IMG/VR virus record: IMGVR_UViG_3300020420_000009
Coordinates: 32,001 to 96,000 of that record
Length of the DNA stretch: 64,000 nt
Source of the DNA: a virus
Strand: one strand, 5' to 3'
A program made the translations under genes and the position numbers. Of the stretch, positions 1 through 64,000 are shown one piece after another. A model generated the notes under the pieces. It worked only from the letters and a program-made list of their open reading frames with translations, did no database searches and was not told where the DNA came from. The stretch's first letter is position 1. Every line of letters starts with the position of its first letter.

Positions 1-621
1 GAACATAGGTCTCCGTTTACATATCAAACACCGACACAGGAACCTAATATTAGAGATGCAAGACAACCTGTAATATATCAACACCAACAACCAAGCACAT
101 ATGATTATCAATCACCTAATACATATGCAAGACAAGGACAGACTCCTTTCACATATACTGCAAGACAACCTGTGATATATCAGAATGTTGGTGCAAGCGC
201 ACAAGAACCAAACATTAGGTCAGGACAACAACCTTATCCATATATTGCACAGGGTAGACAACCATTTACATATAATTATAGGTCACCTTCAACATATCAG
301 AGTCCTGTAAGTGGGCAACAACCAATTAATTCAACTGGTAGAAATCCATTTCCTTATATACACCAACAACCACAACCGTATATTTACAATTCACCATATA
401 TTGCAAGACAACCATATACTACAACTAGAAATATAGGTGCTGTTGCAAAAGTTAAAGGTATATTTGTAAATAATCAAGGTGTAGTTGCAAAAGCACAAGA
501 AGTATATGTGAATGCACCTCAAGGATTAGAAAAAGTTCACCAAGCAGTTCCAAATGCACAATTCTTAAAAGGAACAGAAGGTGACGGTGGACAAACACCA
601 TATCAACCTGGCCCCGGCTAA
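1..621 (+). CDS. Pro/Tyr/Gln-rich repeat fibre protein, C-terminal part (5' end outside window)
   Basis: Frame 1 is open from base 1 (EHRSPFTYQTPTQEPNIRDARQ...). Same repeat vocabulary (QEPNIR, SPFTY, PYPYIA) as 6668-8867; ends in a VAKVKGIFVN...VYVN beta module. Confidence 0.8.
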   Translation, partial: EHRSPFTYQTPTQEPNIRDARQPVIYQHQQPSTYDYQSPNTYARQGQTPFTYTARQPVIYQNVGASAQEPNIRSGQQPYPYIAQGRQPFTYNYRSPSTYQSPVSGQQPINSTGRNPFPYIHQQPQPYIYNSPYIARQPYTTTRNIGAVAKVKGIFVNNQGVVAKAQEVYVNAPQGLEKVHQAVPNAQFLKGTEGDGGQTPYQPGPG

Positions 622-628
622 TAAAATA

Positions 629-636
629 TATAAATA
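629..636 (+). promoter_or_regulatory. T4-type late promoter TATAAATA
   Basis: Exact gp55 consensus, 5 nt before ATG 642. Confidence 0.75.
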
Positions 637-641
637 GTTTT

Positions 642-974
642 ATGGCTATTATTGCAAACTTATTCATTGACCAAGGAACAGATTTTTCTATTACGGTAGA
701 TGTGACTGATTCAGCGGGAACAGCATTAAATCTTACAGGATATTCTGCAGCTGCACAAATCAGAAAGACATATAGTTCTTCAACTGCCTCTGCAACATTC
801 ACAACAAATATTGCAGCTGCAACTGGACAAGTGACTTTAAGTTTGACAGATACCGAAACTACTAATTTAGAAGCAGGTCGGTATGTATATGACCTAAATA
901 TAAATAGTTCAGGTGGTCAAAAGACTAGAGTAGTCGAAGGACAAGCAACAGTGACCCCAGGCGTGACGAGGTAA
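642..974 (+). CDS. Small virion structural protein (Ig/BppU-like fold)
   Basis: IDQGTDFS...LTGYSAAAQIRK...GRYVYD...RVVEG pattern typical of marine T4-like structural proteins. Confidence 0.7.
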   Translation: MAIIANLFIDQGTDFSITVDVTDSAGTALNLTGYSAAAQIRKTYSSSTASATFTTNIAAATGQVTLSLTDTETTNLEAGRYVYDLNINSSGGQKTRVVEGQATVTPGVTR

Positions 975-976
975 GT

Positions 977-1189
977 ATGGCAACAATTAAAGCAAGAGTA
1001 TTAAACAACAGTAATATCAGAGCAAAACAGGTCGCAATCGGTAATACCGATACGGTGAACTTATCAACAAAATCTATACAAGAACTTTCAGATGTCAATG
1101 CAACAGAGACAGATAAAGGAGTTCTTCAATATAACGCTTCTACAGATAAGTGGGAAACCACTAATGTTTTAGACGGCGGAACATTCTAA
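977..1189 (+). CDS. Small fibre-associated structural protein
   Basis: ELSDV...GVLQYN...KW fibre motif; C-terminal LDGGTF. Confidence 0.65.
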   Translation: MATIKARVLNNSNIRAKQVAIGNTDTVNLSTKSIQELSDVNATETDKGVLQYNASTDKWETTNVLDGGTF

Positions 1190-1192
1190 AAG

Positions 1193-1200
1193 TATAAATA
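1193..1200 (+). promoter_or_regulatory. T4-type late promoter TATAAATA
   Basis: Exact consensus at the start of a 148-nt intergenic region. Confidence 0.75.
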
Positions 1201-1202
1201 CT

Positions 1203-1305
1203 TATACAATCAAGGTGTCATTCAGTGAGACACGACCCTCATAGTGAGAGGATTGGTATATTATAATCTTTCTCGAATAGTGCAGAGAAAAATTTGCAAA
1301 TTTTT
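1203..1305 (+). ncRNA. Candidate structured 5' leader with three AGUG-loop hairpins
   Basis: Stems GTGTC/GACAC, CCTC/GAGG and TTTCTC/GAGAAA each close a loop containing AGTG; outer stem TATACAATC/GATTGGTATA encloses the first two. Confidence 0.45.
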
Positions 1306-1337
1306 AATATAAACAACTATTTTTTCAGGAGAAAAAA

Positions 1338-2774
1338 ATGGCAACAGTAATTCAGATTAAACGAAGCACAGGAGTGTCCGCCCCCGCAGTCTCAGACTTG
1401 TCGGAAGGCGAATTAGCTTATGTGCAAGATAGGTCTAATTCGGGTGCTGGAGCAAAACTTTACATAGAATCCGTAGATTCTGATAATTCAACTCCATTGA
1501 TTCATGCAATCGGTGGTAAATACTTTACTGATATTTTATCAGGTTCAACTGCAACACCAGCCAACTTTAAAGTTGGTAATAGTGCAACGCAGGGAGCTGA
1601 GATTCAGTTATTAGAAGATTCAGATAACGGTTCACATTATGTTGCATTGAAAGCACCTAACAGTGTGGCTGGAAATGTGACATTAACCTTGCCGGGCGCA
1701 GACGGTTCTAATGGACAAGTTTTGGGAACAGACGGAAGTGGAACCCTATCATTTATTTCGACAACCTCGACTCTTGCTGGTGCGTCAGACACAGATATAT
1801 CCTCACCTAGTGGTGGACATATCCTAGTCTACGATGGAAGTAATTCCTTCGACAATGTCGCAGTATCAGGAGACGCAACAATTGCATCTAACGGTGCATT
1901 AACAATAGCAAACACTGCTGTGGAAACAGCAATGATTGCAAATGACGCAGTCACACTAGACAAGATTGCAGATGCAGTTATCATTACAGAAGGAGAAGGT
2001 ATTTCTTCTAATGATGTGGACACAGGATTCCCAACAGCAGCTGCAGTTAAAGATTATGTTGATTCACAGGACACTGCTCAAGACTTGGATTTCCAAGCTG
2101 ATTCAGGTGGTGCCTTATCAATTGATTTAGACAGTGAAACCATGGTATTTGCTGGAACAGCAAATGAGATTACAACAACTGCATCAGGTAATACCGTCAC
2201 AATCGGTATGCCAGATAATGTCACTATCGCAGGAAACCTAACAGTAAGTGGAACAACTACTACAGTTAACTCTACAACAGTTAGTATTGCTGACCCAGTT
2301 TTTGAAATTGGTGACGATAGTTCAGACGACAACCTAGACAGAGGTATTAAATTCAAATACAACAGTTCAGGTGCAAAAGTTGGTTTCTTCGGTTTCGATG
2401 ATTCAACAGGTAAGTTCATAGCATTAGGAGCTGCAACAGACTCTTCTTCAACATTCTCAGGAACAGCATTAGGTGCAGTTTTTGGTGGATTAGAAGCTTC
2501 AGGTCTTGCTCTTTCAGGTTCTATTACTTCTATTGACGGGTCTGCTCCAACAGCAGGTCAGTTGTTAATTGGTCACGGTTCAAACGGTGACTTTGCAGCT
2601 GGAACCCTAACAGCAGGAGAAGGTATAGATGTGACTAATGCAGACGGTAGTATCACAATCGCAGGTGAAGATGCATCAACCTCTAATAAAGGTATAGCAA
2701 GTTTTGCAAGTGCAAACTTTACAGTGAGTAGTGGTGCAGTATCAATAACTGCTATTGACGGCGGAACATTTTAA
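1338..2774 (+). CDS. Tail fibre / long structural fibre protein
   Basis: N-terminal IQIKRS...LSEGELA fibre module, Gly/Ser/Thr-rich body, [15 protein letters not shown] module, C-terminal IDGGTF; SD AGGAG. Confidence 0.8.
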
Positions 2775-2800
2775 TTAACCGTTTATAGGAGGAAAACGAT

Positions 2801-3628
2801 ATGGCAACTCAGATACAGTTTAAGCGTTCATCAACTCAGAATGAAGTGCCCGCAACAAGTGATTTAGCACTTGGTGAAGTGGCAATCAATACCTATCATG
2901 GTAGAATGTATACAGAGAAAAATGATGGAAGTGCAGCTATAGTTCAGATTGGGTCTAACCCAACTTCACTAACTGTTAATGATGCATATTCTTTTCCAAC
3001 CGCTGACGGTTCTAGTGGTCAAGTCTTAAAAACTGACGGTTCAGGAACATTAAGTTTCGGAGCTGCAAGTAGTGGAGCTGGTATATCTATTTTTAAATAT
3101 ACTATATCTTCAAACACTACTTCGATAACTGGTAATGACGATGACGGAAACTCTCTATCCTACACAGTAGGTTCAGAGCAAGTTTACCTCAACGGTGTTA
3201 AACTGGTTGACGCAGGAACAGACTATACTGCCACAAATACATCAACCGTCACTTTGGCACAGAATGCTATAAGTGGAGATGTAGTAGAAGTTGTATCCGT
3301 GACTGCAACTGATTTAGTTCAAGGGAACTATACAGAAAGTTCATTCTCGGCAACAACTGCAAACCAAGTATTATCAGCAAACGCGGTTGCCAATAAGGCA
3401 ATCAAGTATGTGATAGTCGCAACACATGCTTCTGCAGGCACACATGCTTGTGAAGTGTTAATAGTAAACAATGGAAGTAATTCATATTTCGTTCAATACG
3501 GTGATGTGATTTCAAGTTCCAGTTTGTTTTCACTGAGTTCAGATATTAATTCAGGAAACATGAGATTACTCATTACTCCAGTTAATACAAATACTACAGT
3601 GGATACATTCCAAATCAGACTTACATAG
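2801..3628 (+). CDS. Virion structural / fibre protein
   Basis: N-terminus paralogous to the 1338 ORF (IQFKRS...LALGEVA); VYLNGVKL...DYTA...GDVVEVV domain. Confidence 0.75.
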   Translation: MATQIQFKRSSTQNEVPATSDLALGEVAINTYHGRMYTEKNDGSAAIVQIGSNPTSLTVNDAYSFPTADGSSGQVLKTDGSGTLSFGAASSGAGISIFKYTISSNTTSITGNDDDGNSLSYTVGSEQVYLNGVKLVDAGTDYTATNTSTVTLAQNAISGDVVEVVSVTATDLVQGNYTESSFSATTANQVLSANAVANKAIKYVIVATHASAGTHACEVLIVNNGSNSYFVQYGDVISSSSLFSLSSDINSGNMRLLITPVNTNTTVDTFQIRLT

Positions 3629-3638
3629 GGGGATATAA

Positions 3639-4049
3639 ATGGCAATAACTAAAGCTTTTAAACTTGCAGAACTTATCCGACATATAGAGTATGATTCTAC
3701 AGACGATGTAATTAAAACGAGTAAACCAACTCAAGATAAAAATACAAAGAAAGGAAGTGATACTAAAACTTCTACTTCTCAATTTAGTCTTGATACATTT
3801 GCTCATGCAACCTACAGGGCTGCAAGATACATAGTTGCAATGTCAGAAGGAACTAATTTCCATTCTACTGAAATCATGTTGATTCATGACGGAACAACAG
3901 TGACAATCACACAGTATGGTATACTCAAGGATACTACACTTGCCACATTTGATGCAGACATTAATGGCTCAAATGTTAGACTATTATGCACTCCTGCTTC
4001 TACAAACTCGACAGTAATCAAGTTTGACAGAACAGTAGTGGACGCATAA
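3639..4049 (+). CDS. Virion structural protein
   Basis: DTF...YRAARYIV...HSTEIMLIHDG...QYG domain, paralogous to the C-terminus of the 2801 ORF. Confidence 0.7.
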   Translation: MAITKAFKLAELIRHIEYDSTDDVIKTSKPTQDKNTKKGSDTKTSTSQFSLDTFAHATYRAARYIVAMSEGTNFHSTEIMLIHDGTTVTITQYGILKDTTLATFDADINGSNVRLLCTPASTNSTVIKFDRTVVDA

Positions 4050-4055
4050 GTTCTT

Positions 4056-4082
4056 AAGGGGGTCAATCGACCCCCTTTTTTT
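4056..4082 (+). terminator. Rho-independent terminator
   Basis: AAGGGGGTC-aatc-GACCCCCTT followed by a T tract. Confidence 0.85.
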
Positions 4083-4152
4083 CATATTTCTTTTTTCTTT
4101 AGACACCCCAATCTCATAAATAATCAAGTAAAACTTAAATTGAGGACACTAA

Positions 4153-4413
4153 ATGGCAACTACAAATACTTTTGTTATTGAATACGGGATAAGTGTCGGG
4201 TCAACAGAGGTTATCAATAGCTCAGGTAAATTACAAGCGAGTGCAATCAGCACTCTAGATACGGATAATCTTTCAGAGGGTTCGACAAATCAATATTTCA
4301 CGAATGCAAGAGCAAGAGGAGCAATCTCACTTGCAAGTGGAGAAACTAATTTATCATATAATTCTTCAAATGGAGAATTGAGTTTGCCAACAGTTAATGG
4401 AGGCTCGTTCTAA
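4153..4413 (+). CDS. Small fibre-associated protein
   Basis: Shares its N-terminus and the LDTDNLSEGSTNQYFTNARAR motif with the 4413 ORF; ends in NGGSF. Confidence 0.7.
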   Translation: MATTNTFVIEYGISVGSTEVINSSGKLQASAISTLDTDNLSEGSTNQYFTNARARGAISLASGETNLSYNSSNGELSLPTVNGGSF

Positions 4414-6641
4414 TGGCAGATGTAAACTTTAAAATTAAAAATGGTCTATCCGTAGGGGATACCGAGGTATTAGACAGCTCAGGTGATTTAACTGCAGCTG
4501 CATTCGGAACTGCAGCCCTAGAAAAAATAGATGACCAAGTAAACTCTTTACTAACAGCAGGTTCAGGAATATCATTATCATATGATGATTCAGCAGGAAC
4601 ATTAACAGTCACGAGAGACGCAGAGACAGGAGACATTGAAGGAGTCACTGCTGGAGACGGACTTTCAGGTGGTGGAACAAGTGGAACAGTATCACTTGCA
4701 TTAGACCTAAACGAATTAACAGCTGCAACAGTAGATGTATCTGCCGATAGTATACCATTCATAGATGGCACTGCAACAAGAAAAGAAAGTATTTCAGATT
4801 TAGTATCAGGAATGGCTGGAACAAATTTAACTGCAAGTTCAGGAACATTAGGAATTGCAGATTCAGTTATTAGAGGAAAGATTAGTGCAAGTGGAGATTT
4901 ATCATATAACTCTTCAACTGGTGTAATATCATTTACAAATGACGCTGGTGACATAGAAAGTGTTGTTGCTGGTTCAGGTTTAACAGGCGGTGGCACATCA
5001 GGAGATGTCACACTAAATGTTATAGGTGGTGACGGTATTACTGCAAATGCAAACGATATTGCATTATCTTCATCAGTTGCAGGCGACAATCTTTCATATA
5101 GTTCAGGTGTCCTAGCAGTAGAACAAAATTTAACAAATTCTTCTGCACCATATTATCATAGGTCAATAGTCACCGTATCAAGTGGTAAATTCTTATTTGA
5201 CGGTCAATCGTCCTCACAAGCTTTAAGACTAACACCAAATGTAGTCTATAGATTTGACCAATCAGATAGTTCAAACGGTTCACACCCATTAAGATTCTCT
5301 GAATCAGCAGACGGTTCAGAAATGACAGACGGTTATTTAATCTATAACAAAGTTGGAACTCCAGGCTCTAGTGGTTCATATACAGAAGTTGCATTCGACC
5401 AAGAATCAAACAATCCTATGTATTTCTACTGTTCAAATCACAGTGGAATGGGTAATACAGTTATACTTGGTGGTGCAGAGAATACAGATTCATTAGACGA
5501 AGGTTCGAGTAATCTTTATCATACCACTGCAAGAGCAAGAGCAGCTATAAGTGCTGGTGGTGACTTATCATACAACAGCACAACTGGTGTAATGAGTTTC
5601 ACAAACGATGCTGGAGACATATCATCAGTCGTTGCTGGAGACGGTTTAACAGGTGGTGGAACAACAGGAGATGTCACACTTGCAGTTCAAGTAGATGATA
5701 GTTCTATAGAAACAGATTCAGATACATTAAGAGTAAAAGCAAGTGGTATAACAAATGCCATGTTAGCAGGTTCGATTGCAAATGATAAACTTGCTGGTTC
5801 GATTGCAAACGCAAAACTTGCAAATAGTTCTATAACTCTAAACTCTAATACAGTTGCATTAGGTAATTCACTTACATTAGATACAGACGATATCGGTGAG
5901 GGTTCAAGTGCCCAATATCATACAACAGAAAGAGTTCAAGATGTAGTTGGAGCTCAGATTGCAACTAATGGTTCACATACAAATATTACTGCAAGTTATG
6001 ACGACGCTGGAGACGGTGCAGTCGACTTATCAATCACAGATGCAGTAATCAGAGGTAAAATATCTGTCACAGATTCAGGTGGAGACGGTTCACTTGCATA
6101 TAATAACTCTACTGGTGTAATAACATATACTGGCCCAAGTGCTTCAGAAGTAAGAGCTCACATAAGTGCTGGAACTGGTGTAGGATTCTCAGGTGGTGCA
6201 GTTAGTATTGGACAGGCAGTTGGAACAAGTGATAATGTGACCTTTAACAATTTGGTTGTAGGTGGAAACCTAACAGTCAGTGGAACTACTTCAACAGTTA
6301 GTTCTACAAATACAACAATTTCAGATGCACTTATAGAATTAGGAAATGGAACATCAGGTTCTCCTTCAAATGACGCAGGTTTGGTTATTGAAAGAGGAAG
6401 TTCAGATAATGTGTTTATAGGTTGGGACGAAAGTGCAGACGCAATCACATTCGGAACAGGTTCATTTACTGGTGCTTCAACAGGTAATTTAACAATTACC
6501 CCAAGTGCAGTTAACACTGGTGCAGTCACAATTACAAATGCAACAAATAATGGTGGAACTGCAAGAAACATATATCAGTCAACCTCTGCACCTAGTGGTT
6601 CAGACGGAGCAGTTGGTGATTTATGGATTCTATACTCCTAA
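4413..6641 (+). CDS. Tail fibre protein with internal cupredoxin-like domain
   Basis: Repeated GDIxSVVAGxGLTGGGTSGDVTL units; YRFDQSDSSN.HPLRFS...YFYCSNHSGMG module; C-terminal APSGSDGAVGDLW fibre motif. Confidence 0.8.
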   Translation: MADVNFKIKNGLSVGDTEVLDSSGDLTAAAFGTAALEKIDDQVNSLLTAGSGISLSYDDSAGTLTVTRDAETGDIEGVTAGDGLSGGGTSGTVSLALDLNELTAATVDVSADSIPFIDGTATRKESISDLVSGMAGTNLTASSGTLGIADSVIRGKISASGDLSYNSSTGVISFTNDAGDIESVVAGSGLTGGGTSGDVTLNVIGGDGITANANDIALSSSVAGDNLSYSSGVLAVEQNLTNSSAPYYHRSIVTVSSGKFLFDGQSSSQALRLTPNVVYRFDQSDSSNGSHPLRFSESADGSEMTDGYLIYNKVGTPGSSGSYTEVAFDQESNNPMYFYCSNHSGMGNTVILGGAENTDSLDEGSSNLYHTTARARAAISAGGDLSYNSTTGVMSFTNDAGDISSVVAGDGLTGGGTTGDVTLAVQVDDSSIETDSDTLRVKASGITNAMLAGSIANDKLAGSIANAKLANSSITLNSNTVALGNSLTLDTDDIGEGSSAQYHTTERVQDVVGAQIATNGSHTNITASYDDAGDGAVDLSITDAVIRGKISVTDSGGDGSLAYNNSTGVITYTGPSASEVRAHISAGTGVGFSGGAVSIGQAVGTSDNVTFNNLVVGGNLTVSGTTSTVSSTNTTISDALIELGNGTSGSPSNDAGLVIERGSSDNVFIGWDESADAITFGTGSFTGASTGNLTITPSAVNTGAVTITNATNNGGTARNIYQSTSAPSGSDGAVGDLWILYS

Positions 6642-6667
6642 TAAATAGGAGACATACAGGATAATTT

Positions 6668-8804: not shown

Positions 8805-8867
8805 CCAGTTATTAGGTGGGACGGAGTCTTACAACAACAATGGCCTGGAACACCGATATCTAGTTAA
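8073..8867 (+). CDS. Repeat protein, mirror partner of the 6668 ORF
   Basis: Starts 1 nt after the upstream stop; almost entirely Pro-delimited repeats. Confidence 0.85.
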   Translation: MPFYQSVYATQARQPVPASYQSPYGTQNPYIANARQPFTYNYRSPFTYQAPARNPFTYHYRSPFTYQAPARNPFTYNYRSPFTYQAPARQPFTYHYRSPFTYRNPVSAQEPNIRSAQQPNIRDAQSPSNAQQPTIKSAQEPNIRSAQEPNIRDARQPSTYDYRSPSTYERQGQTPFTYDHRSPLTYSHRSPFTYSNQNPTTYARQGQTPFTYNYRSPSTYARQGQTPTTYSNQNPTTYARQGRTPVIRWDGVLQQQWPGTPISS

Positions 8868-8894
8868 TTTTAGTCAACTAAATACATTTATATT

Positions 8895-13753: not shown

Positions 13754-13759
13754 AATAAG

Positions 13760-26084: not shown

Positions 26085-27389
26085 ATGTTTTTATCAGAAA
26101 ACTTACAAGAGAAGTGGGAGCCAATTCTAGAACACTCCGATTTACCAAAAATCGAAGACAACTACAAGAAGGCAGTCACAGCAGTAATACTTGAAAACCA
26201 AGAAAAAGCTCTAAACGAAGACAGAGCTGCTCTTGAGGAAGCTGCACCTTTAAACTCTACTGGTAGCTCAATATCTAACTGGGATCCGATTTTAATATCC
26301 CTAGTTCGAAGAGCTATGCCAAATCTCGTTGCTTACGACATTTGCGGTGTTCAACCAATGACAGGCCCTACAGGTCTTATCTTTGCTATGAAAGCAAGAT
26401 ACAATGACTACCCAACAGAAACAAGACTGAACAACTCAGAAGCTTTATTTAATGAAGCTCGTTCAGACTATTCAGGTAGTGCAGACCCAACAGCAGGCCC
26501 AGCAGGTTCCGACCCAATCGGTGACCCGTTTGATACATCTTCACCTTCATACTCAAGCACAACTGGTGCTGGTATGTCTACTGCATCAGCAGAGAGCTTA
26601 GGTGATGGAGCCTCAAACCATTTTGCACAGATGTCTTTCACTATTGAGAAAGCAACTGTCACAGCGAAATCAAGAGCACTCAAAGCAGAGTATACATTAG
26701 AATTAGCACAAGACCTCAAAGCAATCCACGGTCTTGATGCAGAATCAGAACTAGCAAATATTCTTTCATCAGAAATTCTTGCTGAAATCAACAGAGAAGT
26801 TGTAAGAAATGTTAATTTACAAGCTAAAACAGGTGCGTCAGCAACTGCTTCTAGTGGAACATTTAACTTAGATGTTGATGCAAACGGAAGATGGTCTGTA
26901 GAGAAATTCAAAGGTTTATTATTCCAAATTGAAAGAGAATCAAATGTAATTGCAAAAGAAACAAGAAGGGGTAAAGGAAACTTTATTCTTTGTTCTTCTG
27001 ATGTTGCATCTGCACTTTCAATGGCAGGCGTGTTAGATTACACTCCAGCTCTTAACACTAACATCAATGTTGATGACACAGGTAATACATTTGCTGGTGT
27101 CTTAAACGGAAGAGTAAAGGTCTACATTGACCCTTATGCATCTGTTGACTACATGACAGTTGGTTATAGAGGAAGTAATCCTTATGACGCAGGTATGTTC
27201 TATTGCCCATATGTTCCACTACAAATGGTGAGAGCAGTTGGCGAAAACACTTTCCAACCAAAAATCGGTTTCAAAACTAGATATGGTATGGTATCTAATC
27301 CATTCGTAGGTTCAACACCTTCTGACGGTTTAGCAAGTGCTGGAACAAACTTCTACTACAGAAAAATGGCTGTTAGCAATATTCTGTAA
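26085..27389 (+). CDS. gp23: Major capsid protein gp23
   Basis: LISLVRRAMPNL.AYDICGVQPMTGPTGLIFAM...AKSRALKAEYT.ELAQDLKAIHGLDAE...FQPKIGFKTRYG. Confidence 0.99.
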   Translation: MFLSENLQEKWEPILEHSDLPKIEDNYKKAVTAVILENQEKALNEDRAALEEAAPLNSTGSSISNWDPILISLVRRAMPNLVAYDICGVQPMTGPTGLIFAMKARYNDYPTETRLNNSEALFNEARSDYSGSADPTAGPAGSDPIGDPFDTSSPSYSSTTGAGMSTASAESLGDGASNHFAQMSFTIEKATVTAKSRALKAEYTLELAQDLKAIHGLDAESELANILSSEILAEINREVVRNVNLQAKTGASATASSGTFNLDVDANGRWSVEKFKGLLFQIERESNVIAKETRRGKGNFILCSSDVASALSMAGVLDYTPALNTNINVDDTGNTFAGVLNGRVKVYIDPYASVDYMTVGYRGSNPYDAGMFYCPYVPLQMVRAVGENTFQPKIGFKTRYGMVSNPFVGSTPSDGLASAGTNFYYRKMAVSNIL

Positions 27390-31582: not shown

Positions 31583-32093
31583 AGACTTAATACCACAAAG
31601 ATACGAAGTTCTAAAATTAAGAACTGGTTCTGAAATTGTTGGAATGGTTAGAGACACAGAACAAGGTGTCGAAATAACCTTACCTATGATTTGTCAATTA
31701 GAAGTCGTTCCCGATAAAAGTGCAACTCTTGCTACTTTTTACCCATACTCACCTTTGAGTTCTGACCCAACAGTTCAAATACCTTATGATTTAATTGCAC
31801 ATAGAAATACTATGAATGACCAGTTTGTAAATTTCTATGACGAGGCAAGTTCAAAATGGTTTGACATGGTTGAGAATAAAAAGATACCATTGGTGACGAA
31901 TCCTAAAACAGCTCATAGAGATTATATCAAAAGAGTCGTTGACGAATTAATGAATGCAACAGGTGGCCCAATCACAGAAAGAGAAGAAAGAATGTTGAGA
32001 AGGATTGAAGAAGAAGAATGGAACATAGACGATGAAGTCTTTGCAGATTTTGAATCTTCGATAGTTCCAACAGATAAGAAGAAAATTCATTAG
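31569..32093 (+). CDS. Conserved hypothetical protein (Sm-like N-terminus)
   Basis: VLKLRTGSEIVG motif, similar to the 60743 ORF. Confidence 0.65.
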   Translation: MTTPKDLIPQRYEVLKLRTGSEIVGMVRDTEQGVEITLPMICQLEVVPDKSATLATFYPYSPLSSDPTVQIPYDLIAHRNTMNDQFVNFYDEASSKWFDMVENKKIPLVTNPKTAHRDYIKRVVDELMNATGGPITEREERMLRRIEEEEWNIDDEVFADFESSIVPTDKKKIH

Positions 32094-55145: not shown

Positions 55146-55149
55146 CTAT

Positions 55150-55205
55150 TGTAATTGCTCAATAGAGGATTACATATATTAACTTGCTAAAAATAGGAGA
55201 AAAAT
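55150..55205 (+). ncRNA. ROSE-like RNA thermometer
   Basis: CTTGCT (55183-55188) can pair with SD AGGAG (55195-55199) leaving a bulged G; upstream hairpin 55150-55174. Confidence 0.55.
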
Positions 55206-55616
55206 ATGACGCATTTAGATATATTTGGTCAATTCAGACCGTTCGCAATAGGATTTGATAGGTATTTCGAAGACCTCGAAAGAATGTCAAATATCACACA
55301 AACCAATTACCCACCTTACAATGTTGTAAAGGAAGACGATGAACATTTCAGTGTCGAACTTGCAGTTGCTGGGTTCAGTAAGAAAGATGTTTCTATCACT
55401 AAAGAGAAGAATGTCCTTGTTATTGAAGGTAAAGTAGAAGATGAATCTAAGGACTTTGTCCATAAAGGTTTGGCTTCTAGAGCATTTAAGAGAAGCTTTA
55501 CACTTGCAGATGATGTAGAAATCAGTGGTGCAAGTCTAAAAGACGGTATCTTGGTTGTGAGTTTAGAGAGAGTTGTTCCCGAAGAGGATAAACCTGTCTC
55601 TATAAAAATTTCTTAA
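55206..55616 (+). CDS. hsp20: Small heat-shock protein Hsp20 (IbpA-like)
   Basis: IGFDR...NYPPYNV...ELAVAGF...HKGLASRAFKRSFTLAD...LKDGIL. Confidence 0.95.
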   Translation: MTHLDIFGQFRPFAIGFDRYFEDLERMSNITQTNYPPYNVVKEDDEHFSVELAVAGFSKKDVSITKEKNVLVIEGKVEDESKDFVHKGLASRAFKRSFTLADDVEISGASLKDGILVVSLERVVPEEDKPVSIKIS

Positions 55617-55690
55617 AACCCTATATACAGAATAGACTTCTGTTGTTATAATGGAAGTCTATTCATATTATATGAGAGAGGTATTATATT

Positions 55691-56188
55691 ATGTATGAAG
55701 TTGGAAGGATTATTCCTAGAATAAGATTTAAAGTCAGAGTTGACGGTGAATGGGATACTATTGATAGTCATGTCATAACCGAAGGTAAAAGAGTCGTAAT
55801 CTTTGCACTGCCTGGCGCATTCACACCAACATGTTCTACTTTTCAATTGCCTGGCTTCGAGGAAGCATATTCTAAATTCAAAGAAAAAGGAATAGACGAA
55901 ATTTACTGTTTATCAGTTAATGATACATTCGTCATGAATTCTTGGTTTCAAGCTCAAGGAATAGAAAAAGTAAAAGCATTGCCTGACGGAAGTGCAATGT
56001 TCACAATAGCACTAGGTGCAAATGTTCAAAAAGATAACTTAGGTTTTGGAACTAGGTCTTGGAGATATGCAATGGTTGTAAACGATACTAGAGTCGAACA
56101 GATATTTTTCGAAGATGGTTTTGGTGACAATGCAGAATCAGACCCATACGAAGTTTCTTCACCCGAGAATGTTTTAGAAAATCTTTAA
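55691..56188 (+). CDS. Peroxiredoxin (Prx5/redoxin type)
   Basis: LPGAFTPTCS...SVNDTFVM..W...PDGS..FT...RSWRYAMVV. Confidence 0.93.
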   Translation: MYEVGRIIPRIRFKVRVDGEWDTIDSHVITEGKRVVIFALPGAFTPTCSTFQLPGFEEAYSKFKEKGIDEIYCLSVNDTFVMNSWFQAQGIEKVKALPDGSAMFTIALGANVQKDNLGFGTRSWRYAMVVNDTRVEQIFFEDGFGDNAESDPYEVSSPENVLENL

Positions 56189-56232
56189 AAACCCACTTGT
56201 CAATATGACTATGTTTATGTTAATATAGTCAT

Positions 56233-57486: not shown

Positions 57487-58463
57487 ACCACGGGTTTAAA
57501 GAAACCTTTGATAAATGGAATGGTAAGTTTCTGAAAGAAGATTCTTATGACGAAGTTATATCTTCAATTGGAGTAAAAGAAGATATCATAAAGATATCTA
57601 AACCAGTTGCAGCTATAGACGGTGATTCACCACCACTTGCATATATTGTTAAGAATGCATATACTGGAAAAGATTATCAAGATATAAAGGACACATTGTT
57701 TTCTATAGACGATGTATCTACTATGAGAGCAAATGCATCAGGCCCAATCGACCACGAAGAAATGAAAAAGAAAGGTTTGATTGAAGGAGTCCATTATAAA
57801 TTAAGAACACCTAACTCTTACTACCCTCTTAAAAAGAATGGTAAGTTCAATCGTATTGCAGAGGCAAATGCAATTCATTCAGTATTGATTGGATATAAAA
57901 GAGGAAGATTTACAGGAATGATTAATCCTAGTGGTTGGATGAAAAAGAAATCTAATCAAGAGAAATGGGAAGTATTACAAAGAATTGCACCCCTCAATGA
58001 GGCTGCATTAAAGAAAGCCTCCCCCAGTGTGTGGCGTCAGCAGAGAGCATTTGCTGACAACTATATTGAAAGTAAGTATCACATAGGGGGAGCACCTATT
58101 ACAGCTTTATCTGCAAACAGATATTCAAGTGAAGGGACTGCAAAAATGTCTGCACACTTAGACGGTAAAGATTTAGAATTTGGATTGACAACAATGTGTG
58201 TTTTTAGAATCGGTGATTTTAAAGGTGCATATCTTTGTTTTCCAAGATACGGAATTGCAATTGAAGCTGACGATGGTGATGTATTGATTGCAGATTCTAA
58301 TGAATTACATGGAGTCACACCTATCGAAGGAAACGGTGTAAGACTATCATGTGTTGCATATTGTGATGAACATGTTGCAACAAAGGGTATCGGTGGAAAA
58401 TCCGAGAATCCTATCGGGCCCCATAATAAAGATAAACAAGGGTCACTCGATGAATTCTTTTAA
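57465..58463 (+). CDS. TET/JBP-family 2OG-Fe(II) dioxygenase (5-methylpyrimidine oxidase)
   Basis: SAHLDGKD (HxD), GAYLCFPRYGIA...GDVLIAD..ELHG.TPI...RLSCVAY; overlaps the C5-MTase gene. Confidence 0.8.
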   Translation: MEFVAKVDHGFKETFDKWNGKFLKEDSYDEVISSIGVKEDIIKISKPVAAIDGDSPPLAYIVKNAYTGKDYQDIKDTLFSIDDVSTMRANASGPIDHEEMKKKGLIEGVHYKLRTPNSYYPLKKNGKFNRIAEANAIHSVLIGYKRGRFTGMINPSGWMKKKSNQEKWEVLQRIAPLNEAALKKASPSVWRQQRAFADNYIESKYHIGGAPITALSANRYSSEGTAKMSAHLDGKDLEFGLTTMCVFRIGDFKGAYLCFPRYGIAIEADDGDVLIADSNELHGVTPIEGNGVRLSCVAYCDEHVATKGIGGKSENPIGPHNKDKQGSLDEFF

Positions 58464-58517
58464 CCGTTGTATACTGGGTATGAAGGTATATAACACTTTT
58501 GCAAAAGGAGTATAACC

Positions 58518-59513
58518 ATGCAATTGAATTATGATATAGAGAGAAGCAGAAAAGCTTATCCTCCCATTACTGGTAATGGAATCAAAAAAAATCTCGGGAG
58601 ACAGGACGGCCCGTTGTCTAGGTTGGTGACAACAGACGAAAATGGTGTTCTAAAACAACCAAGGCAAATTGCTTTGGAAGACAACCAATATGGAATAGTA
58701 AAAGACTTTCAACAATTTGGAGTTGATTACAGTAAAGAACCTATGGTTGTTGAACTGAGAGGTGACGGACAACTCGAACTCATTTCGGGTTTCGGTAGAC
58801 TTTCTGCATTATTATCAATGGGTATCAATAGATACTTTTACGAAGTCTTACAATTTGAGTCTCCAAAAGACAAAATCAAATGGAAAAGACTATTCAATAC
58901 TGGAGACGACCATAGAAAAAAGGGAACTCCAAATACACTAGACACATACAAAAAAGGTTTAGTGGAAATGAAACATGCAAGTTGTATCAATTGGAGAGAT
59001 GACGATGTTTGTAGAGCAGAAATCAGAGATATGTCTGATGGAACTCTTTCAGATACAGAAGTTGAAACTGTATTGAATAGATTTAGACAGAGTAATACTA
59101 AAGAAGAAAATGTTGTAGGATATACAACAAATGAAGCTAACAAAACAGCAAAACTATTAGGACAACCAACTAAAGGTTATGTCAAAAATACTTCTAATCC
59201 TGCTTGGGATAGAAGTGGTTATTGCAGATATGAAGGTAATTTTAGTAGTAAAATCTACGATATAGTAGAACTATATGATAACTATGGTGCAAAAATTGAA
59301 ATCGTAGGTTTCATAATGAATCCAGTTCACGACAGAATTGAGAAACAAAGAAAAGATTATCTCAAAGGTTTCAACAGAGCAAAAGCTTGGATGAAAAAAC
59401 ATCTAAAGCCTGAGTATCATGACATAGTTGTGTTCAAAGGATTTCTTCCACAAATTACAACTGCCGACCCAAAACAAAATGGTTTACCTAGGGAGAGAGA
59501 TTTAGTATTATGA
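58518..59513 (+). CDS. Hypothetical protein with ParB-like N-terminal motif
   Basis: PMVV....GQLELISGFGRLSAL. Confidence 0.55.
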   Translation: MQLNYDIERSRKAYPPITGNGIKKNLGRQDGPLSRLVTTDENGVLKQPRQIALEDNQYGIVKDFQQFGVDYSKEPMVVELRGDGQLELISGFGRLSALLSMGINRYFYEVLQFESPKDKIKWKRLFNTGDDHRKKGTPNTLDTYKKGLVEMKHASCINWRDDDVCRAEIRDMSDGTLSDTEVETVLNRFRQSNTKEENVVGYTTNEANKTAKLLGQPTKGYVKNTSNPAWDRSGYCRYEGNFSSKIYDIVELYDNYGAKIEIVGFIMNPVHDRIEKQRKDYLKGFNRAKAWMKKHLKPEYHDIVVFKGFLPQITTADPKQNGLPRERDLVL

Positions 59514-60046
59514 TATTTCTAATTGGAGGAATACCATGTTCGGGTAAGTCAACACTTACCCGAAATCTCATTAGTCGACTCCCCGACCCAGTTGATATTG
59601 AACCTAAAAAACTATTCAAGTGTCAAGAACATGGAGATATATTAGTTGTAGGTAGATATCCCGAGGGAGAAACTTTTGGTGGAACAGATAAATTATCTCA
59701 TGGTTCTATTCCACATTTTAGAGAATTCATTGACGAGGTCACACCTAGATATAAACATACTATTATAGAAGGGGATAGATATTTTCGTAATGAAGATATA
59801 GAATGGTTGTTAGATAATCATGAAGCAAAAGTTATCATACTAACAGTTCATATAGAGATAGAACATGATAGACATAATTTGAGAGGAGATACTCAATCGG
59901 AAGTATGGTTGCAAGGTAGAAGAACTCAAATAGATAATATTAGAAAGAACTTTAATCTCATGGATAGATTAATCATACATGATAATTATGATATACAACA
60001 ATCTATGAAAATGGAAGATTACATATATGGAAAAATTATTCAGTAA
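59510..60046 (+). CDS. P-loop kinase of the type found in DNA-modification clusters
   Basis: GGIPCSGKST; GRY...TFGGTDKLS; IIEGDR; RG..QS..WL.GR.T. Confidence 0.75.
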   Translation: MIFLIGGIPCSGKSTLTRNLISRLPDPVDIEPKKLFKCQEHGDILVVGRYPEGETFGGTDKLSHGSIPHFREFIDEVTPRYKHTIIEGDRYFRNEDIEWLLDNHEAKVIILTVHIEIEHDRHNLRGDTQSEVWLQGRRTQIDNIRKNFNLMDRLIIHDNYDIQQSMKMEDYIYGKIIQ

Positions 60047-60344
60047 AACATACATAGTTGTAGAAAACCCACATGAGAAGGACGCTGCAATAGAAATTAT
60101 TGACGGTGAATGGAAAGGATTAGTATACCAATATGGTAAAGTAGAGTTCGTTGAGAATAAGAATCATTTAAACTTTCAAAGAACAATACGAAGGATACCC
60201 GAAGGTGGTGACCTTGATGAACTCCTAAATAATAACGAACTCAACAATCTTATGGGAGACATACTTGTTGAACTTATGCAAGAACAAATCGAGAGGGATA
60301 AGCATGAACATAGAAAAATTGAAGGAACAAATAAAGCGACATGA
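60027..60344 (+). CDS. Conserved phage hypothetical protein
   Basis: AIEIIDGEWKGLVYQYGKV...MGDILVELM. Confidence 0.7.
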   Translation: MEKLFSKTYIVVENPHEKDAAIEIIDGEWKGLVYQYGKVEFVENKNHLNFQRTIRRIPEGGDLDELLNNNELNNLMGDILVELMQEQIERDKHEHRKIEGTNKAT

Positions 60345-60750
60345 AGGTGAAGTATTGGAAGTATACGCAGATTCATTGGGTTATCTTACACTGGGTGTTG
60401 GACACCTCATACAACCTAATGACCCCGAACATGGGCAACCAGCTGGAACTCCAGTAAGTCAAGAAGTAGTTGACGAATATTACGCAATAGATTTTGACAA
60501 ACATTTAGAAGAAACAAAACATGTCATAGGATATGATGTTTTTGACGGACTTCCTGGCGAGATACAAGAAGTTTTAGTTAACATGTGTTTCAACTTAGGT
60601 GGAACAAGATTAGGTAAATTTAGAAACATGTTGAATGCAGTAGAAGACCACGATTGGGAAAAAATGGCAGTTGAGATGGAAGATAGCCGTTGGTTTAGAC
60701 AAGTTGGAAGAAGGTCTGTAGAGTTGCAAGAAATTGTGAGAAATGTATGA
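60304..60750 (+). CDS. Lysozyme (GH24 / T4-lysozyme-like)
   Basis: HEG....YADSLGYLTLGVGH (E-x8-D-x5-T)...NMCFNLG...F.NML...DSRWFRQVGRR. Confidence 0.9.
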   Translation: MNIEKLKEQIKRHEGEVLEVYADSLGYLTLGVGHLIQPNDPEHGQPAGTPVSQEVVDEYYAIDFDKHLEETKHVIGYDVFDGLPGEIQEVLVNMCFNLGGTRLGKFRNMLNAVEDHDWEKMAVEMEDSRWFRQVGRRSVELQEIVRNV

Positions 60751-61090
60751 ACCAATAAAAGGATACAAAGTTAAATGTATCCGTCTCAATACAGGTGAGG
60801 TTATTATGGGTTTTGTGAAGAAAACTCCAAATGGATTTGAAATCATAGAACCACAAATTATACTTACCGTTGCAGAGAACAATCAAATGGAAGTAAATTT
60901 TGCACCATGGATACCATATGCAAGAGATTACCATTTTAGAATATTAGACCAGCAAATACAAACAGTATTTGACCCTAAACCCGAACTCACACAAAACTTT
61001 AAGTTTGTGACGGGGAATCAACCGAGAGGAGATTTGAAAGAGTTTATTGAGGAAAAAAATGAAAGAAAAAGTAATAAAAATAATAGCTGA
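60743..61090 (+). CDS. Conserved hypothetical protein (Sm-like)
   Basis: VKCIRLNTGEVIMG...FAPWIPYA. Confidence 0.7.
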   Translation: MYEPIKGYKVKCIRLNTGEVIMGFVKKTPNGFEIIEPQIILTVAENNQMEVNFAPWIPYARDYHFRILDQQIQTVFDPKPELTQNFKFVTGNQPRGDLKEFIEEKNERKSNKNNS

Positions 61091-61283
61091 CCATCTTAAA
61101 ATAGATGAGTCAACTGTATCACTTGACTCCCAAATAATTGAGGATTTAGGTGCAGATTCTTTACATATAGTAGAATTGGTAATGGAGATAGAAAATAATT
61201 TTGACATTACTATACCTGATGATGATGCAGAAGGTTTAACAACTGTAGGTAAAGTTGTAGAATATGTGGAGGACTATGCATAA
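61059..61283 (+). CDS. acpP: Acyl carrier protein
   Basis: DLGADSL.IVELVMEIE..FDITIPDDDAE.LTTVG. Confidence 0.92.
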   Translation: MKEKVIKIIADHLKIDESTVSLDSQIIEDLGADSLHIVELVMEIENNFDITIPDDDAEGLTTVGKVVEYVEDYA

Positions 61284-61516
61284 TGGATTTTTTAAATAGA
61301 GTCATGACTGCTCAGGTAGGACAAGCTGATGCAATGATTGAAAAACATAAAATCAACATAGAAGTATTAACTAAAAATGCAAGTGGTGTTGCAGACCACC
61401 CCGACTTAATGAAAACAGTTGAAGATGAACTGAATCAAATTGGTCACTGGGAAGAAATTAAATCAGTTGCACTAAAACATTTCGATTTCGAAAAGAAAAG
61501 AACCTTGACAGAATAG
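61283..61516 (+). CDS. Conserved phage hypothetical protein
   Basis: KHKINIEV...GVADHPD....E.EL. Confidence 0.7.
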   Translation: MDFLNRVMTAQVGQADAMIEKHKINIEVLTKNASGVADHPDLMKTVEDELNQIGHWEEIKSVALKHFDFEKKRTLTE

Positions 61517-61533
61517 TATCCCTCTAGTATAAT
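61505..61533 (+). promoter_or_regulatory. Consensus sigma70 promoter of gp43
   Basis: TTGACA-17-TATAAT, 6 nt before ATG 61540. Confidence 0.85.
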
Positions 61534-61539
61534 TATATT

Positions 61540-64000
61540 ATGGATTTCTATACAAGTGTTTGTCGCACGAGAGACAAGATTCTCGTAAAAGGTTATAAAG
61601 GAAACAAACAAGAAAAGATTGCAGTTTCCTATAGACCCAATCACTATATCCCCTCAAAGAAAGGAGAAACAGCATTCCGTTCATTGGACGGAAGACACCT
61701 TGAAGCAGTAAATCTAAACTCCATGGGTGGTGCAAGAAAATTCAGAGAGAGATATGCTGGAGTTGACGGATTTGAAATCCATGGATATGACAGATATATC
61801 TACACATATATTGCAGACAGATTCAAGGGTGATATAGAATACAATCAGAAACTAATCAAAACTGCTTCTCTTGATATCGAGTGTGAGTGTGAGGACGGAT
61901 TCCCCGAACCTATACTTGCAAATGAAAAGGTCAATGCAATATCAATCAAACCCTTTGGTAAAGAAACTGTAGTCTTCGGTATCGGCCCATGGGAACATGA
62001 CAGAACAGATGTAATCTATCACAACTGTAAAAACGAACCACAACTTCTTATAGAATTTATCAAATACTGGAGAAAAGAATCCTTTGATATTATCACAGGC
62101 TGGAATGTAAACTCATTTGATATTACATATCTCTGTAATCGTATCGACAAGATACTTGGAGAAGACGAACACAAAAAACTATCACCATGGAATCAATCAG
62201 ATGTTAGAGAATTTGTTGCTCAAGGTTATCAGAAACAAATGGTTTATAACCTTTATGGTATTAATGTTCTTGATTACCTCGAACTCTACCGCAAACATAC
62301 TTTCGTAAATCAAGAATCATACAGACTAGACCATATTGCAAATGTCGAACTCGGTAAAGGTAAACTCGACTATTCAGAGTATGGAAATCTACATACCCTT
62401 TACCGACAAGACTATGCAAAGTTCCTTGAATACAATGTTCAAGACGCTGTATTGGTAGAGGAACTAGAAGACAAACTTGGACTGATTGAGTTGGTTCAAG
62501 CAATGTCATACAATGCAAAATGTAATTACAATGATACATTTGGTATGGTAAAGTATTGGGAAACTATTATATACAACTTCCTCAAAGACCAAAATATTCA
62601 AACTCCACCTCAAAGACTCAAGACAGGTAATGATAAGAACAAACCTATCATAGGTGCATATGTCAAAGAACCATTGGTGGGTGGACACAACTGGGTTGTA
62701 TCATTTGACTTGAACTCACTGTATCCACATATCATTATGCAATACAATATCTCTCCCGAGAAAATGGTGAAGGGGTATAAAGAAGATGTATCTATTGATA
62801 AACTTCTAAACAAACAATGTGACCTATCATATCTAAGACAACAGAACAATACCGTATGTCCTAACGGAACAAAGTTTACTAGAAACAAACAAGGTTTTCT
62901 TCCCGAACTTATGGAAAAATTCTATGACGAAAGAAAAACTTGGAAGAAAAAAATGATTGAGTATCAAGTTGAACGAGAAGCGTGCAAAGATGCAAAACGC
63001 CGAAGACAACTTGATACTCTAATCAAGCGTGCATACAACAATCAAATGGTTCGTAAGATTGCATTGAACTCTGCATATGGTGCTCTTGCAAATCAATACT
63101 TTGCATTCTTTTCTATAGACCTTGCAGAGGCAATCACTACCAGTGGTCAGTTAATTATTCAATGGTCAGAAAGAACTATCAATGAGTTTATGAACAAGAC
63201 TCTTGGAACAGAGAATGAAGATTTTGTAATTGCAATGGATACTGATTCAGTGTATATCACTATGGATAAACTGGTTCAGAAAGTTCTTCCCGAAGAAACA
63301 GACAAGAGTAAAATTATAAACTTTCTCAACAAGTCCGAAGGTATGATTGAAAAAGTTCTTTCAGACGGATTTGACGACCTTGCAGAATATACAAATGCAT
63401 ATCAAAACAAAATGGAAATGGGACGAGAGATTATTGCAGACCGTGGTATTTGGACTGCAAAGAAAAGATACATTCTAAATGTCCACGACAACGAAGGTGT
63501 AAGACTTGCAGAACCGAAACTCAAGATGATGGGTATTGAAACTGCAAAGTCTTCTACACCACAATGGGTCAGAACAAAACTCACAGACGCTTTCAAGGTT
63601 GTTATGAGTGGAACTGAACAAGACTTATGGGAGTTTGTGGAAAATGCACGAAAAGAGTTTCGTAATCTTCCTCCCGAAGAAGCTGCATTCCCTAGAGGTT
63701 GTAAGAATCTTGCACAGTATTCAGACCCAACCCACATATATGGTAAAGGAACTCCTATCCATACTAGAGGTGCATTACTATACAATCACCACCTTGGTAA
63801 AAAGAATGTGGATATGAGATACGAGAAGATTAAGAATGGTGAGAAGATACATTTTACATATCTTACAACACCAAATCCTATCAATGAAAATGTTATTTCA
63901 TTTATGAATGTTTTACCTAGAGAGTTTGATTTACATAGGTTTGTAGATTATGACATGCAGTTTGACAAAGCATTTGTTGAACCATTGAAAGTGGTTGTTA
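61540..64000 (+). CDS. gp43: Family B DNA polymerase gp43 (runs off the window end; absent from the ORF track)
   Basis: Frame 1 read manually: LDIEC (ExoI), TGWNVNSFD, SFDLNSLYP (62701), KIALNSAYG, DTDS (about 63240), KKRY. Confidence 0.97.
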   Translation, partial: MDFYTSVCRTRDKILVKGYKGNKQEKIAVSYRPNHYIPSKKGETAFRSLDGRHLEAVNLNSMGGARKFRERYAGVDGFEIHGYDRYIYTYIADRFKGDIEYNQKLIKTASLDIECECEDGFPEPILANEKVNAISIKPFGKETVVFGIGPWEHDRTDVIYHNCKNEPQLLIEFIKYWRKESFDIITGWNVNSFDITYLCNRIDKILGEDEHKKLSPWNQSDVREFVAQGYQKQMVYNLYGINVLDYLELYRKHTFVNQESYRLDHIANVELGKGKLDYSEYGNLHTLYRQDYAKFLEYNVQDAVLVEELEDKLGLIELVQAMSYNAKCNYNDTFGMVKYWETIIYNFLKDQNIQTPPQRLKTGNDKNKPIIGAYVKEPLVGGHNWVVSFDLNSLYPHIIMQYNISPEKMVKGYKEDVSIDKLLNKQCDLSYLRQQNNTVCPNGTKFTRNKQGFLPELMEKFYDERKTWKKKMIEYQVEREACKDAKRRRQLDTLIKRAYNNQMVRKIALNSAYGALANQYFAFFSIDLAEAITTSGQLIIQWSERTINEFMNKTLGTENEDFVIAMDTDSVYITMDKLVQKVLPEETDKSKIINFLNKSEGMIEKVLSDGFDDLAEYTNAYQNKMEMGREIIADRGIWTAKKRYILNVHDNEGVRLAEPKLKMMGIETAKSSTPQWVRTKLTDAFKVVMSGTEQDLWEFVENARKEFRNLPPEEAAFPRGCKNLAQYSDPTHIYGKGTPIHTRGALLYNHHLGKKNVDMRYEKIKNGEKIHFTYLTTPNPINENVISFMNVLPREFDLHRFVDYDMQFDKAFVEPLKVVV

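Follow-up and report, generated by a model that had tools for sequence, protein, structure and literature searches.

The window analysed here, a stretch of 64,000 nucleotides comprising positions 32001–96000 of the 129,718-bp IMG/VR record IMGVR_UViG_3300020420_000009, belongs to an uncultured Melnitz/pelagimyophage-like marine T4-type virus whose DNA is purged of many short restriction-type words, and in which survival of the purged sites hinges on a G located 5' of the site cytosine, as seen with at least six independent motifs. The window also encodes a DNA cytosine-C5 methyltransferase (C5-MT) overlapping a TET-type dioxygenase, and we consider it probable that the phage employs a two-part defence, in which this enzyme pair marks the cytosine of GpC[C/T/G] and the words that the mark cannot reach are purged. 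The record has 36% G+C, is estimated to be 71% complete and holds 153 genes in our open reading frame calls (95% coding), nearly all on one strand. It falls with Melnitz and HTVC008M, T4-like marine myophages of OM43 and SAR11 respectively, on the basis of its DNA polymerase, its curli-type genes and its CHASE2 cyclase. A search of genome contigs with the phage peroxiredoxin gave no host signal, the matches being scattered over many phyla at 48–65% identity.

Word usage in the record, and in the window alone, was compared with a null of 300 shuffles of synonymous codons inside each gene, which keeps the proteins and the codon usage of every gene; counts are given below as observed/expected under this shuffle. 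Short restriction-type words fell far under the codon-preserving expectation in the record (ACGT 0/206, GTAC 0/299, GATC 1/353, GTWAC 0/199, CCGG 5/59), which is what defines restriction-site avoidance, while GGCC stood at 91/62. The window gave the same picture with roughly half the counts (ACGT 0/99, GTAC 0/141, GATC 1/176, GTWAC 0/96, and GGWCC 0/33 compared to 32/10 for GGSCC). An earlier note on this DNA, made by eye, had described these depletions, the absence of GGWCC and the writing of Gly-Pro as GGC-CC or GGG-CC. Counting confirms all three, the deficits being far beyond chance and the 32 GGNCC of the window consisting of 20 GGCCC and 12 GGGCC. The 14 positions at which that note had placed individual sites all hold the words in question, three of them (8843, 17161 and 1691) marking the flanking G, one base early, and the pattern that it had assigned to 607–61990 is present there but extends over the whole record. 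Absence of GGWCC with GGSCC present is nonetheless no evidence of a waiver, since an enzyme specific for GGWCC would suffice. Also purged in the record are GGATG/CATCC (14/122), broader CATC/GATG words and ACTAGT (1/29), as well as GCTA/TAGC (203 observed versus 519 expected), the last with no flank dependence. At least 15 words thus figure on the purge list of one phage, which is many given that the hosts have been called restriction-poor.

Evidence for a waiver comes from words that are purged or kept depending on one neighbouring base. We call a site H-flanked if A, C or T precedes its cytosine, and flanked if it has a G before or a C after it. In the record, flanked CCWGG amounted to 55/20 (10 with G only, 36 with C only and 9 with both). 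With a shuffle fraction of 0.23, the probability of all 55 CCWGG being flanked by chance is 1e-35. Split in this way, neither unflanked CCWGG (0/61) nor GGWCC (0/62) is anywhere near normal levels. The rule is repeated in CCGG (unflanked 0/46, flanked 5/13) and in CCAGA/TCTGG (H-flanked 4/153, G-flanked 23/20), and also in three words that the earlier note had not considered and that came to light when the minimal purged words were listed without bias: CCTGCA (2/58 and 9/3.6), CTTCAG (13/72 and 24/15) and CGTCG (2/67 and 7/12, H- and G-flanked respectively). In the window, where CCWGG occurs 29 times, CCGG five, CCAGA four and TCTGG six, every CCWGG and CCGG has a G before or a C after it, all four CCAGA are preceded by G and all six TCTGG followed by C, exactly as the note had it; the corresponding shuffles gave HCCWGGD 0/32, flanked CCWGG 29/11.6, HCCGGD 0/22, HCCAGA 0/67 and GCCAGA 10/10.5. 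Moreover, a scan of all 5-mers in the 16 combinations of flank and first base found rescue by G before C alone, the pooled observed/expected ratio being ≤0.01 in the remaining 15. The rule is visible in codon choice too, Gly after the Pro codons CCA or CCT (CCW) being written GGC in 46 of 54 cases, compared to 159 of 2858 (5.6%) overall.

The third base of the protective context further restricts the rule. The earlier note had proposed that any GpC within or next to a site exempts it, which holds for G-flanked cytosines but not for several words that contain GpC and are purged in the record all the same: GTGCAC (0/15), GCSGC (0/13), GCATCC (2/19) and GCAGCA (5/91, compared to 169/80 for GCAGCB; 4/40 and 77/41 in the window). 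Nor does the internal TGCA of CCTGCA exempt it: without a flanking G, this word is purged as well. Protection was found in the contexts GCC (many words), GCT (CTTCAG, plus CTGAAG and CTTAAG in relatives) and GCG (CGTCG, plus CGGGA in relatives), and among the motifs examined in the record and its relatives no GCA context protected. GpC[C/T/G] therefore fits, rather than any GpC, and a mark following this GCB rule would fall on 2,784 of the 46,506 cytosines in the record (6.0%). Of the words that the note had called abundant, only TGCA is (556/370 in the window, z score 15; 1199/748 in the record, z score 27, or 1.5–1.6 times expectation; for example at 57, 126, 159 and 192). AGCT and GCWGC are at expectation both in the window (151/167 and 81/80) and in the record (319/341 and 174/171), levels that show only an absence of selection against them, and GCWGC conceals the split between GCAGCA and GCAGCB. 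The GC steps are skewed to TGCA (observed/expected 1.30 for TGC compared to 0.69, 0.61 and 0.84 for AGC, CGC and GGC), and GCA accounts for 69% of Ala codons, no other four-fold family preferring A in the third position so strongly. The TGCA excess may reflect a phage minimising its markable GCB steps, or may follow from the purges as a side effect. The TGCA ratio is 1.56 in a 151-kb relative (G001, 83% complete by CheckV), 1.19 (weak) in Melnitz and 0.81 in HTVC008M.

The enzymes that could lay such a mark are encoded between a redoxin and a phage lysozyme gene, which serve as synteny anchors (Table 1). The start of the TET gene overlaps the end of the C5-MT gene by 22 nt, and its putative iron ligands (H231-x-D233, H282) and 2-oxoglutarate-binding Arg (R293) do not vary among 77 homologues. 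Among solved structures, CmoX is nearest to the C5-MT (8yf3, E 3.6e-72, compared to 2e-15 for M.HhaI), and the SPPC motif of the MTase aligns with the CmoX catalytic Cys. The 331-aa protein encoded after TET gave no Pfam or PHROG match, and its AlphaFold2 (AF2) model (pLDDT 80) has PadC, Noc and ParB as top Foldseek matches, with E values of 1.5e-5 and weaker. The small P-loop protein that follows matches PF18751 (Ploopntkinase3) over residues 1–148 with E 0.0015 and 18.6 bits, under the 27-bit cut-off, and its PHROG kinase/ATPase matches span the P-loop only; PHROG also gave it the label terminase small subunit. Outside the window, the record encodes a second DNA methylase, of the N6_N4 type, whose best solved relative is 2zie and which has weak matches to N4-cytosine methylases; no homologue of it was found in Melnitz, G001, HTVC008M, Synechococcus phage S-B43 or the related loci fetched.

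Table 1. Positions of the features discussed, in window coordinates except where a record or locus is named.
Feature	Position	Strand	Basis
Word signature (purged words and G-preceded survivors), running through the whole 129.7-kb record	1..64000	.	counts, codon shuffles
Tolerated site: CCAGG with a C after it, Pro-Gly as CCA-GGC	5361..5366	+	flank count, codon count
Sole GATC of the 129.7-kb record, inside GGATCC	26283..26286	+	word count
Hsp20-like stretch upstream of the redoxin gene	~55218-55613		65% identity to a G001 gene that matches HSP20 in Pfam
Redoxin/peroxiredoxin, upstream border of the slot	55691..56188	+	PF08534, E 2e-23
DNA cytosine-C5 methyltransferase, 417 aa	56233..57486	+	PF00145, E 7.8e-51, 173.9 bits; TIGR00675
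TET/JBP-type 2-oxoglutarate/Fe dioxygenase (5mYOX), 332 aa	57465..58463	+	PF12851, 47.7 bits (cut-off 34.9)
ParB-like protein, 331 aa, N-terminal ParB/Srx-type fold	58518..59513	+	AF2 model, Foldseek
Small P-loop protein, 178 aa, candidate nucleotide kinase of base-hypermodification clusters	59510..60046	+	weak PF18751
Phage lysozyme, downstream border of the slot	60265..60750	+	PF00959
N6_N4-type DNA methylase, 293 aa, outside the window	record 963-1844; L266:963-1841	+	PF01555, E 4.7e-13
Staphylococcal-nuclease-type gene, 146 aa, outside the window	record 96480-96890; G001 L264:4857-5297		PF00565
N6_N4-type methylase of G001, 482 aa	L264:10386-11834 = G001:C1:130386-131834	-	PF01555
Slot with DruA-like, cytidylyltransferase and TET-associated glycosyltransferase (PF20691) genes	L251:922-4631		gene scan
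Slot with radical-SAM and QueC genes (7-deazaguanine type)	L245:2097-5860		gene scan
Further variable-island stretches	L218:1884-3017; L255:2476-4639		

According to Burke et al. (2021, PMC8256090), GpC is the methylation target of phage C5-MTs that are paired with TETs. That paper assigns GpC[C/T/G], to the exclusion of GpCA, to clade I, whose enzymes have an extra insert in the target recognition domain (TRD), GpC[C/T] to clade IIa and any GpC to clade IIb; clade I/A loci contain heat shock protein, redoxin and P-loop kinase or glycosyltransferase genes, and clade II/B loci a DNA polymerase gene upstream. Our locus shares with clade I/A, as described there, the overlapping C5-MT and TET genes, the redoxin directly upstream, the Hsp20-like stretch and the weak P-loop kinase downstream. 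Its MTase has a TRD insert of ~20 residues as measured against the Melnitz enzyme and CmoX, which may correspond to that of clade I. The context deduced from the genome (GCC, GCT and GCG but not GCA) is likewise the one reported for clade I. In gene content, the locus appears to resemble clade I/A. The expectation in the earlier note that the MTase/TET pair targets GpC agrees with the presence of the overlapping pair and with characterised relatives that modify GpC, but is too broad, GpC[C/T/G] fitting better. The two studies differ in approach, for the reported enzymes were assayed in Escherichia coli, with no effect on their own genomes or on restriction described, and ours is read from the word usage of the phage itself. 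M.CviPI, the chlorella virus GpC methylase, is another viral C5 methylase with a GpC target but is reported to take any GpC (PMC8256090), GCA showing no sign of protection here.

Two other systems are related in part. In S-B43, whose virion DNA has been found by experiment to be modified at GC, CmoA, CmoX and CmoY constitute a 5-carboxymethylcytosine pathway in which CmoX, the GC-specific carboxymethyltransferase, binds the carboxyl of carboxy-S-adenosylmethionine through Arg350 (Yang et al., 2025, PMC12783734). CmoX, the closest solved relative of our enzyme, shares with it the SPPC motif and, probably, a GC target, and S-B43 has the same waiver at CCGG (see below). Our enzyme differs in having a Leu in place of Arg350 (IGLMV compared to VGRMV), as in all 10 aligned TET-linked MTases, and a TET gene next to it instead of a ligase gene. 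We rejected carboxymethylation of the CmoX type: Arg350 is missing, and no match to TIGR00740 (CmoA) was found in the 129.7-kb record, which is an estimated 71% complete. The MTase should therefore use S-adenosylmethionine. ParB proteins, for their part, activate phage T-dioxygenases, a subclass that has no neighbouring C5-MT and oxidises thymine (O'Toole et al., 2026, PMC13229309). As in those systems, a 5mYOX gene is followed here by ParB-like and P-loop kinase-type genes, but the C5-MT gene overlaps the dioxygenase gene, so that the locus combines both features. The thymine modification that the ParB and kinase genes might suggest received no support from the flank scan, which revealed no waiver in a thymine context.

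In the two-part defence that we favour, the C5-MT would methylate, after replication, cytosines that follow G, most likely in GpC[C/T/G] and not in GpCA, and the overlapping TET dioxygenase would probably oxidise the marked cytosines to 5-hydroxymethylcytosine, with the ParB-like and small P-loop proteins possibly activating or extending this chemistry. Words out of the mark's reach would be removed by synonymous and other substitutions, and those that can be written with their cytosine in a G-C step would be kept only in that form, such as Pro-Gly as CCW-GGC with its rare Gly codon. What the sequences establish directly are the word statistics, the flank rule, the gene content and the recurrence in relatives described below. 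From these we infer that GpC[C/T/G] bears the mark, that one marked strand is enough to block cleavage and that the hosts supply the selecting nucleases, in which case the purged words might, as the earlier note proposed, list the restriction specificities of the host.

We then examined relatives of the phage. A search with the MTase retrieved 80 loci (970 kb, 56–96% identity), in which 131 of 134 CCWGG and 39 of 41 CCGG were flanked, GGWCC occurred seven times compared to 410 for GGSCC, and GCAGCA 25 times compared to 614 for GCAGCB. Homologues of the ParB-like protein (E ≤ 1e-5) were present in 24 of the 80, directly after TET in the rows examined. Most of the flank exceptions sit in a single locus of 16.7 kb (L040), which might have recombined recently or belong to a lineage freed from the pressure. 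No other MTase-bearing relative combines unflanked CCWGG (three in L040), unflanked CCGG (two) and GGWCC (two). Purges of ACGT, GTAC, GATC, GTWAC, CCAGA, CCTGA and other words differ among close relatives, which thereby provide natural experiments. Comparing loci that purge a word with those that do not for CCAGA, CCTGA, CCTGCA, CCTCC, CTTCAG and CTGAAG, H-flanked sites were 29- to 217-fold fewer, G-flanked ones changing only 0.4- to 3-fold. Six loci purge CATCC, and from these GCATCC, where the context is GCA, was gone too. A per-locus scan for rescue of C-initial 6-mers was read from its high-count rows only, since choosing loci on zero counts makes the rows of rare words unreliable.

The cultured phage Melnitz obeys the same rule (HCCWGGD 0/65 versus flanked 68/25; HCCGGD 0/46 versus 15/21; HCCTGA 6/177 versus 25/25; HCCTCC 3/134 versus 13/22; HCCTGCA 2/93 versus 22/12). 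Its GCG contexts give no rescue, in line with what is expected of a clade II enzyme, and its locus has the polymerase upstream. In S-B43, where GC modification is proven, HCCGGD was 0/144 and all eight surviving CCGG were flanked; as CCGG is the only strongly purged word there, the rule is supported in this phage on eight sites only. HTVC008M, in which no homologue of the C5-MT or TET was found, has 112 of its 136 CCWGG unflanked and GGWCC at 73/70, purges GGCC (22/78) and displays a partial G-flank excess at CCGG (HCCGGD 10/31). HTVC008M (L087–L089, NC_020484) appears to follow a rule of its own, in which purged words starting with GA survive after G: GGATC stands at 111/134 compared to 13/218, 7/60 and 35/229 for AGATC, CGATC and TGATC, with GATCA, GATCG and GATCT all at 0 after other flanks, and the same is seen with GGACTC (15/14 versus 0/69), GGATTC (22/24 versus 6/156) and GGATGC (14/15 versus 9/177). 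This suggests a different mark, on a GGA/TCC context.

Several observations weigh against the two-part defence as we propose it. Of the 55 tolerated CCWGG in the record, 46 would bear the mark on one strand only. Some words in a protective context are not rescued, namely GCC-flanked CCATC (GCCATC 8/24) and GCGACG (1/6.5) in the record, CCGTC with a GCC flank in relatives and flanked CCGG in G001 (0/14), and AGCT is depleted in Melnitz (132/370) despite having GCT on both strands. GCAGCA may be a plain 6-bp target, which leaves the case against GCA on few motifs; our scan of 3' contexts gave trivial motif completions only and did not separate a GCB-shielded GCAGC from a GCAGCA target. The behaviour of HTVC008M means that flank-dependent survival is not unique to phages with MT/TET, the record encodes its N6_N4-type methylase in addition to the C5-MT, and modification of the phage DNA is deduced here from the genome sequence alone. 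A further objection comes from G001, which has the full signature (HCCWGGD 0/71 and flanked 52/20; HCCAGA 2/182 versus 15/22) with no C5-MT, TET or CmoX homologue detected in its record, so that the signature alone does not identify the enzyme. Depletion of AGCT is shared by HTVC008M (153/424) and S-B43 (256/613) and is not seen in the window's phage.

Loci retrieved with the polymerase (polB) form two classes, one of them with the signature (no GGWCC, all CCWGG flanked and ~10 TGCA per kb), and many signature loci from this search have no C5-MT nearby. In G001, the place of the MT–TET–ParB–kinase genes, between redoxin/Hsp20 and lysozyme, is taken by a 482-aa N6_N4-type methylase, whose PF01555 match of 27.2 bits is barely over the cut-off. 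We therefore compared 30 classifiable polB-related loci that span the redoxin–lysozyme slot. All 11 slots with a methylase (two with C5-MT/TET and nine of the G001 type) had the signature, which was absent in 15 of the 19 without (Fisher test 5e-5). The test ignores the relatedness of the loci, and its P value is uncorrected for it, which likewise tempers our reading, as do the four signature loci with neither methylase type detected, whose slots hold other cassettes of 3.9–6.2 kb, two of which (L251 and L245) were scanned for genes (Table 1). The signature-free slots contain at most a DruA-like gene (~375 aa), one of them with sugar-nucleotide genes as well. The pre-set comparison is the one of 11/0 versus 4/15, a 15/15 split resting on a cassette class defined post hoc. 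Thus, the signature accompanies a modification cassette in the slot, though not C5-MT/TET alone. Four types of slot cassette, all with the G-C-step waiver, can be told apart: C5-MT/TET/ParB/kinase; a lone N6_N4-type methylase; DruA-like, cytidylyltransferase and glycosyltransferase; and radical-SAM/QueC. With some doubt, we tentatively put forward that the slot could be a swappable DNA-modification island in which biochemically unrelated cassettes have converged on marking one G-C step, that the exceptions to site avoidance would read out the modification motif, and that HTVC008M would represent a second such code.

These results bear directly on an explanation that we regard as unlikely, whereby the mark on the GpC step is made by another enzyme, either the 293-aa N6_N4 methylase of the record or an unrecognised one shared by these phages, and the MT/TET pair serves some other end. 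The signature of G001, the four signature loci in whose slot no methylase was detected and the presence of the 293-aa gene all speak for it. Yet the 293-aa methylase has no homologue in Melnitz, whose complete genome shows the waiver, and the slot of G001 is not empty but filled by a different DNA methylase. Moreover, ten genes are common to the record, Melnitz and G001 but not to HTVC008M, and no recognisable DNA methylase was found among the six scanned against Pfam and a seventh of the staphylococcal nuclease (SNase) type, while enzymes of the C5-MT family are GpC-specific by experiment (PMC8256090, PMC12783734).

About equally improbable, in our view, is that the nucleases behind the core purge (GGWCC, CCWGG and CCGG) are encoded by the phages, for example to degrade unmodified host DNA, so that each phage would have to clear unshielded targets from its own genome, with host restriction explaining the variable purges only. 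The core purge tracks the cassette across lineages, which could reflect hosts in common or a nuclease that the phages themselves encode: it occurs in all signature-bearing relatives, whatever their other purges, and neither the 15 slot-empty loci nor HTVC008M have it. Restriction-modification systems are, apart from a few, unreported in SAR11 genomes (PMC9516812), and the SNase-type gene shared by the record, Melnitz and G001 has no match in HTVC008M. However, no sequence-specific nuclease was identified in these phages, and cassette lineages that infect different hosts would explain the correlation equally well. Purge lists also differ between loci whose MTases are >90% identical (GTWAC is 0 in L003 and 39 in L005), which fits host systems that vary between strains. 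SNase-type enzymes are not known to be site-specific.

That no modification is involved, and that longer nuclease recognition sequences or a bias in codon pairs or mutation produce the pattern, is very improbable: although HTVC008M, with no MT/TET, displays flank-dependent survival at GGATC and some G-flank excess at CCGG, and although the GGWCC versus GGSCC contrast is explicable without a waiver, at least six unrelated words obey one rule with A, C and T flanks each purged, the shuffle preserves per-gene codon usage and protein sequence, CCWGG sites are flanked in only 14–18% of cases where the word is unpurged (relatives, S-B43 and HTVC008M), and GGCC, purged by relatives that lack a cassette, is over-represented in cassette-bearing ones.

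The two-part defence combines two known strategies, virulent phages losing short palindromes under restriction and protecting sites with methylases of their own, as do the multispecific methylases of Bacillus phages. Here, both act on the same words, one flanking base decides between them and the exceptions spell out the context of the modification. We found no published account, in a literature search, of flank-conditional avoidance as a readout of the target or function of a modification enzyme in vivo; the main text of PMC8256090 makes no mention of avoidance, under-representation or depletion, and the Melnitz paper mentions a methylase only. The enzymes themselves are of a known kind.

In a 2023 preprint, the discoverers of the C5-MT/TET systems considered that a post-replicative mark limited to GpC seems unlikely to protect broadly from host endonucleases, and called its action on phage versus host DNA unknown. 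Word usage in this genome and its relatives would answer both points in silico, the phage DNA being shaped around the mark, with mark and purging acting together and the mark covering exactly the sites whose removal coding constraints hinder. The target predicted in vivo is GpC[C/T/G] in this phage and probably GpC[C/T] in Melnitz, which, with OM43 strain H5P1, constitutes a cultured phage–host pair where the prediction is testable. More generally, the approach would provide a route from sequence alone to the modification motifs of uncultured viruses and, in the present case, the genome itself indicates that a sparse DNA mark may shield the phage from restriction.

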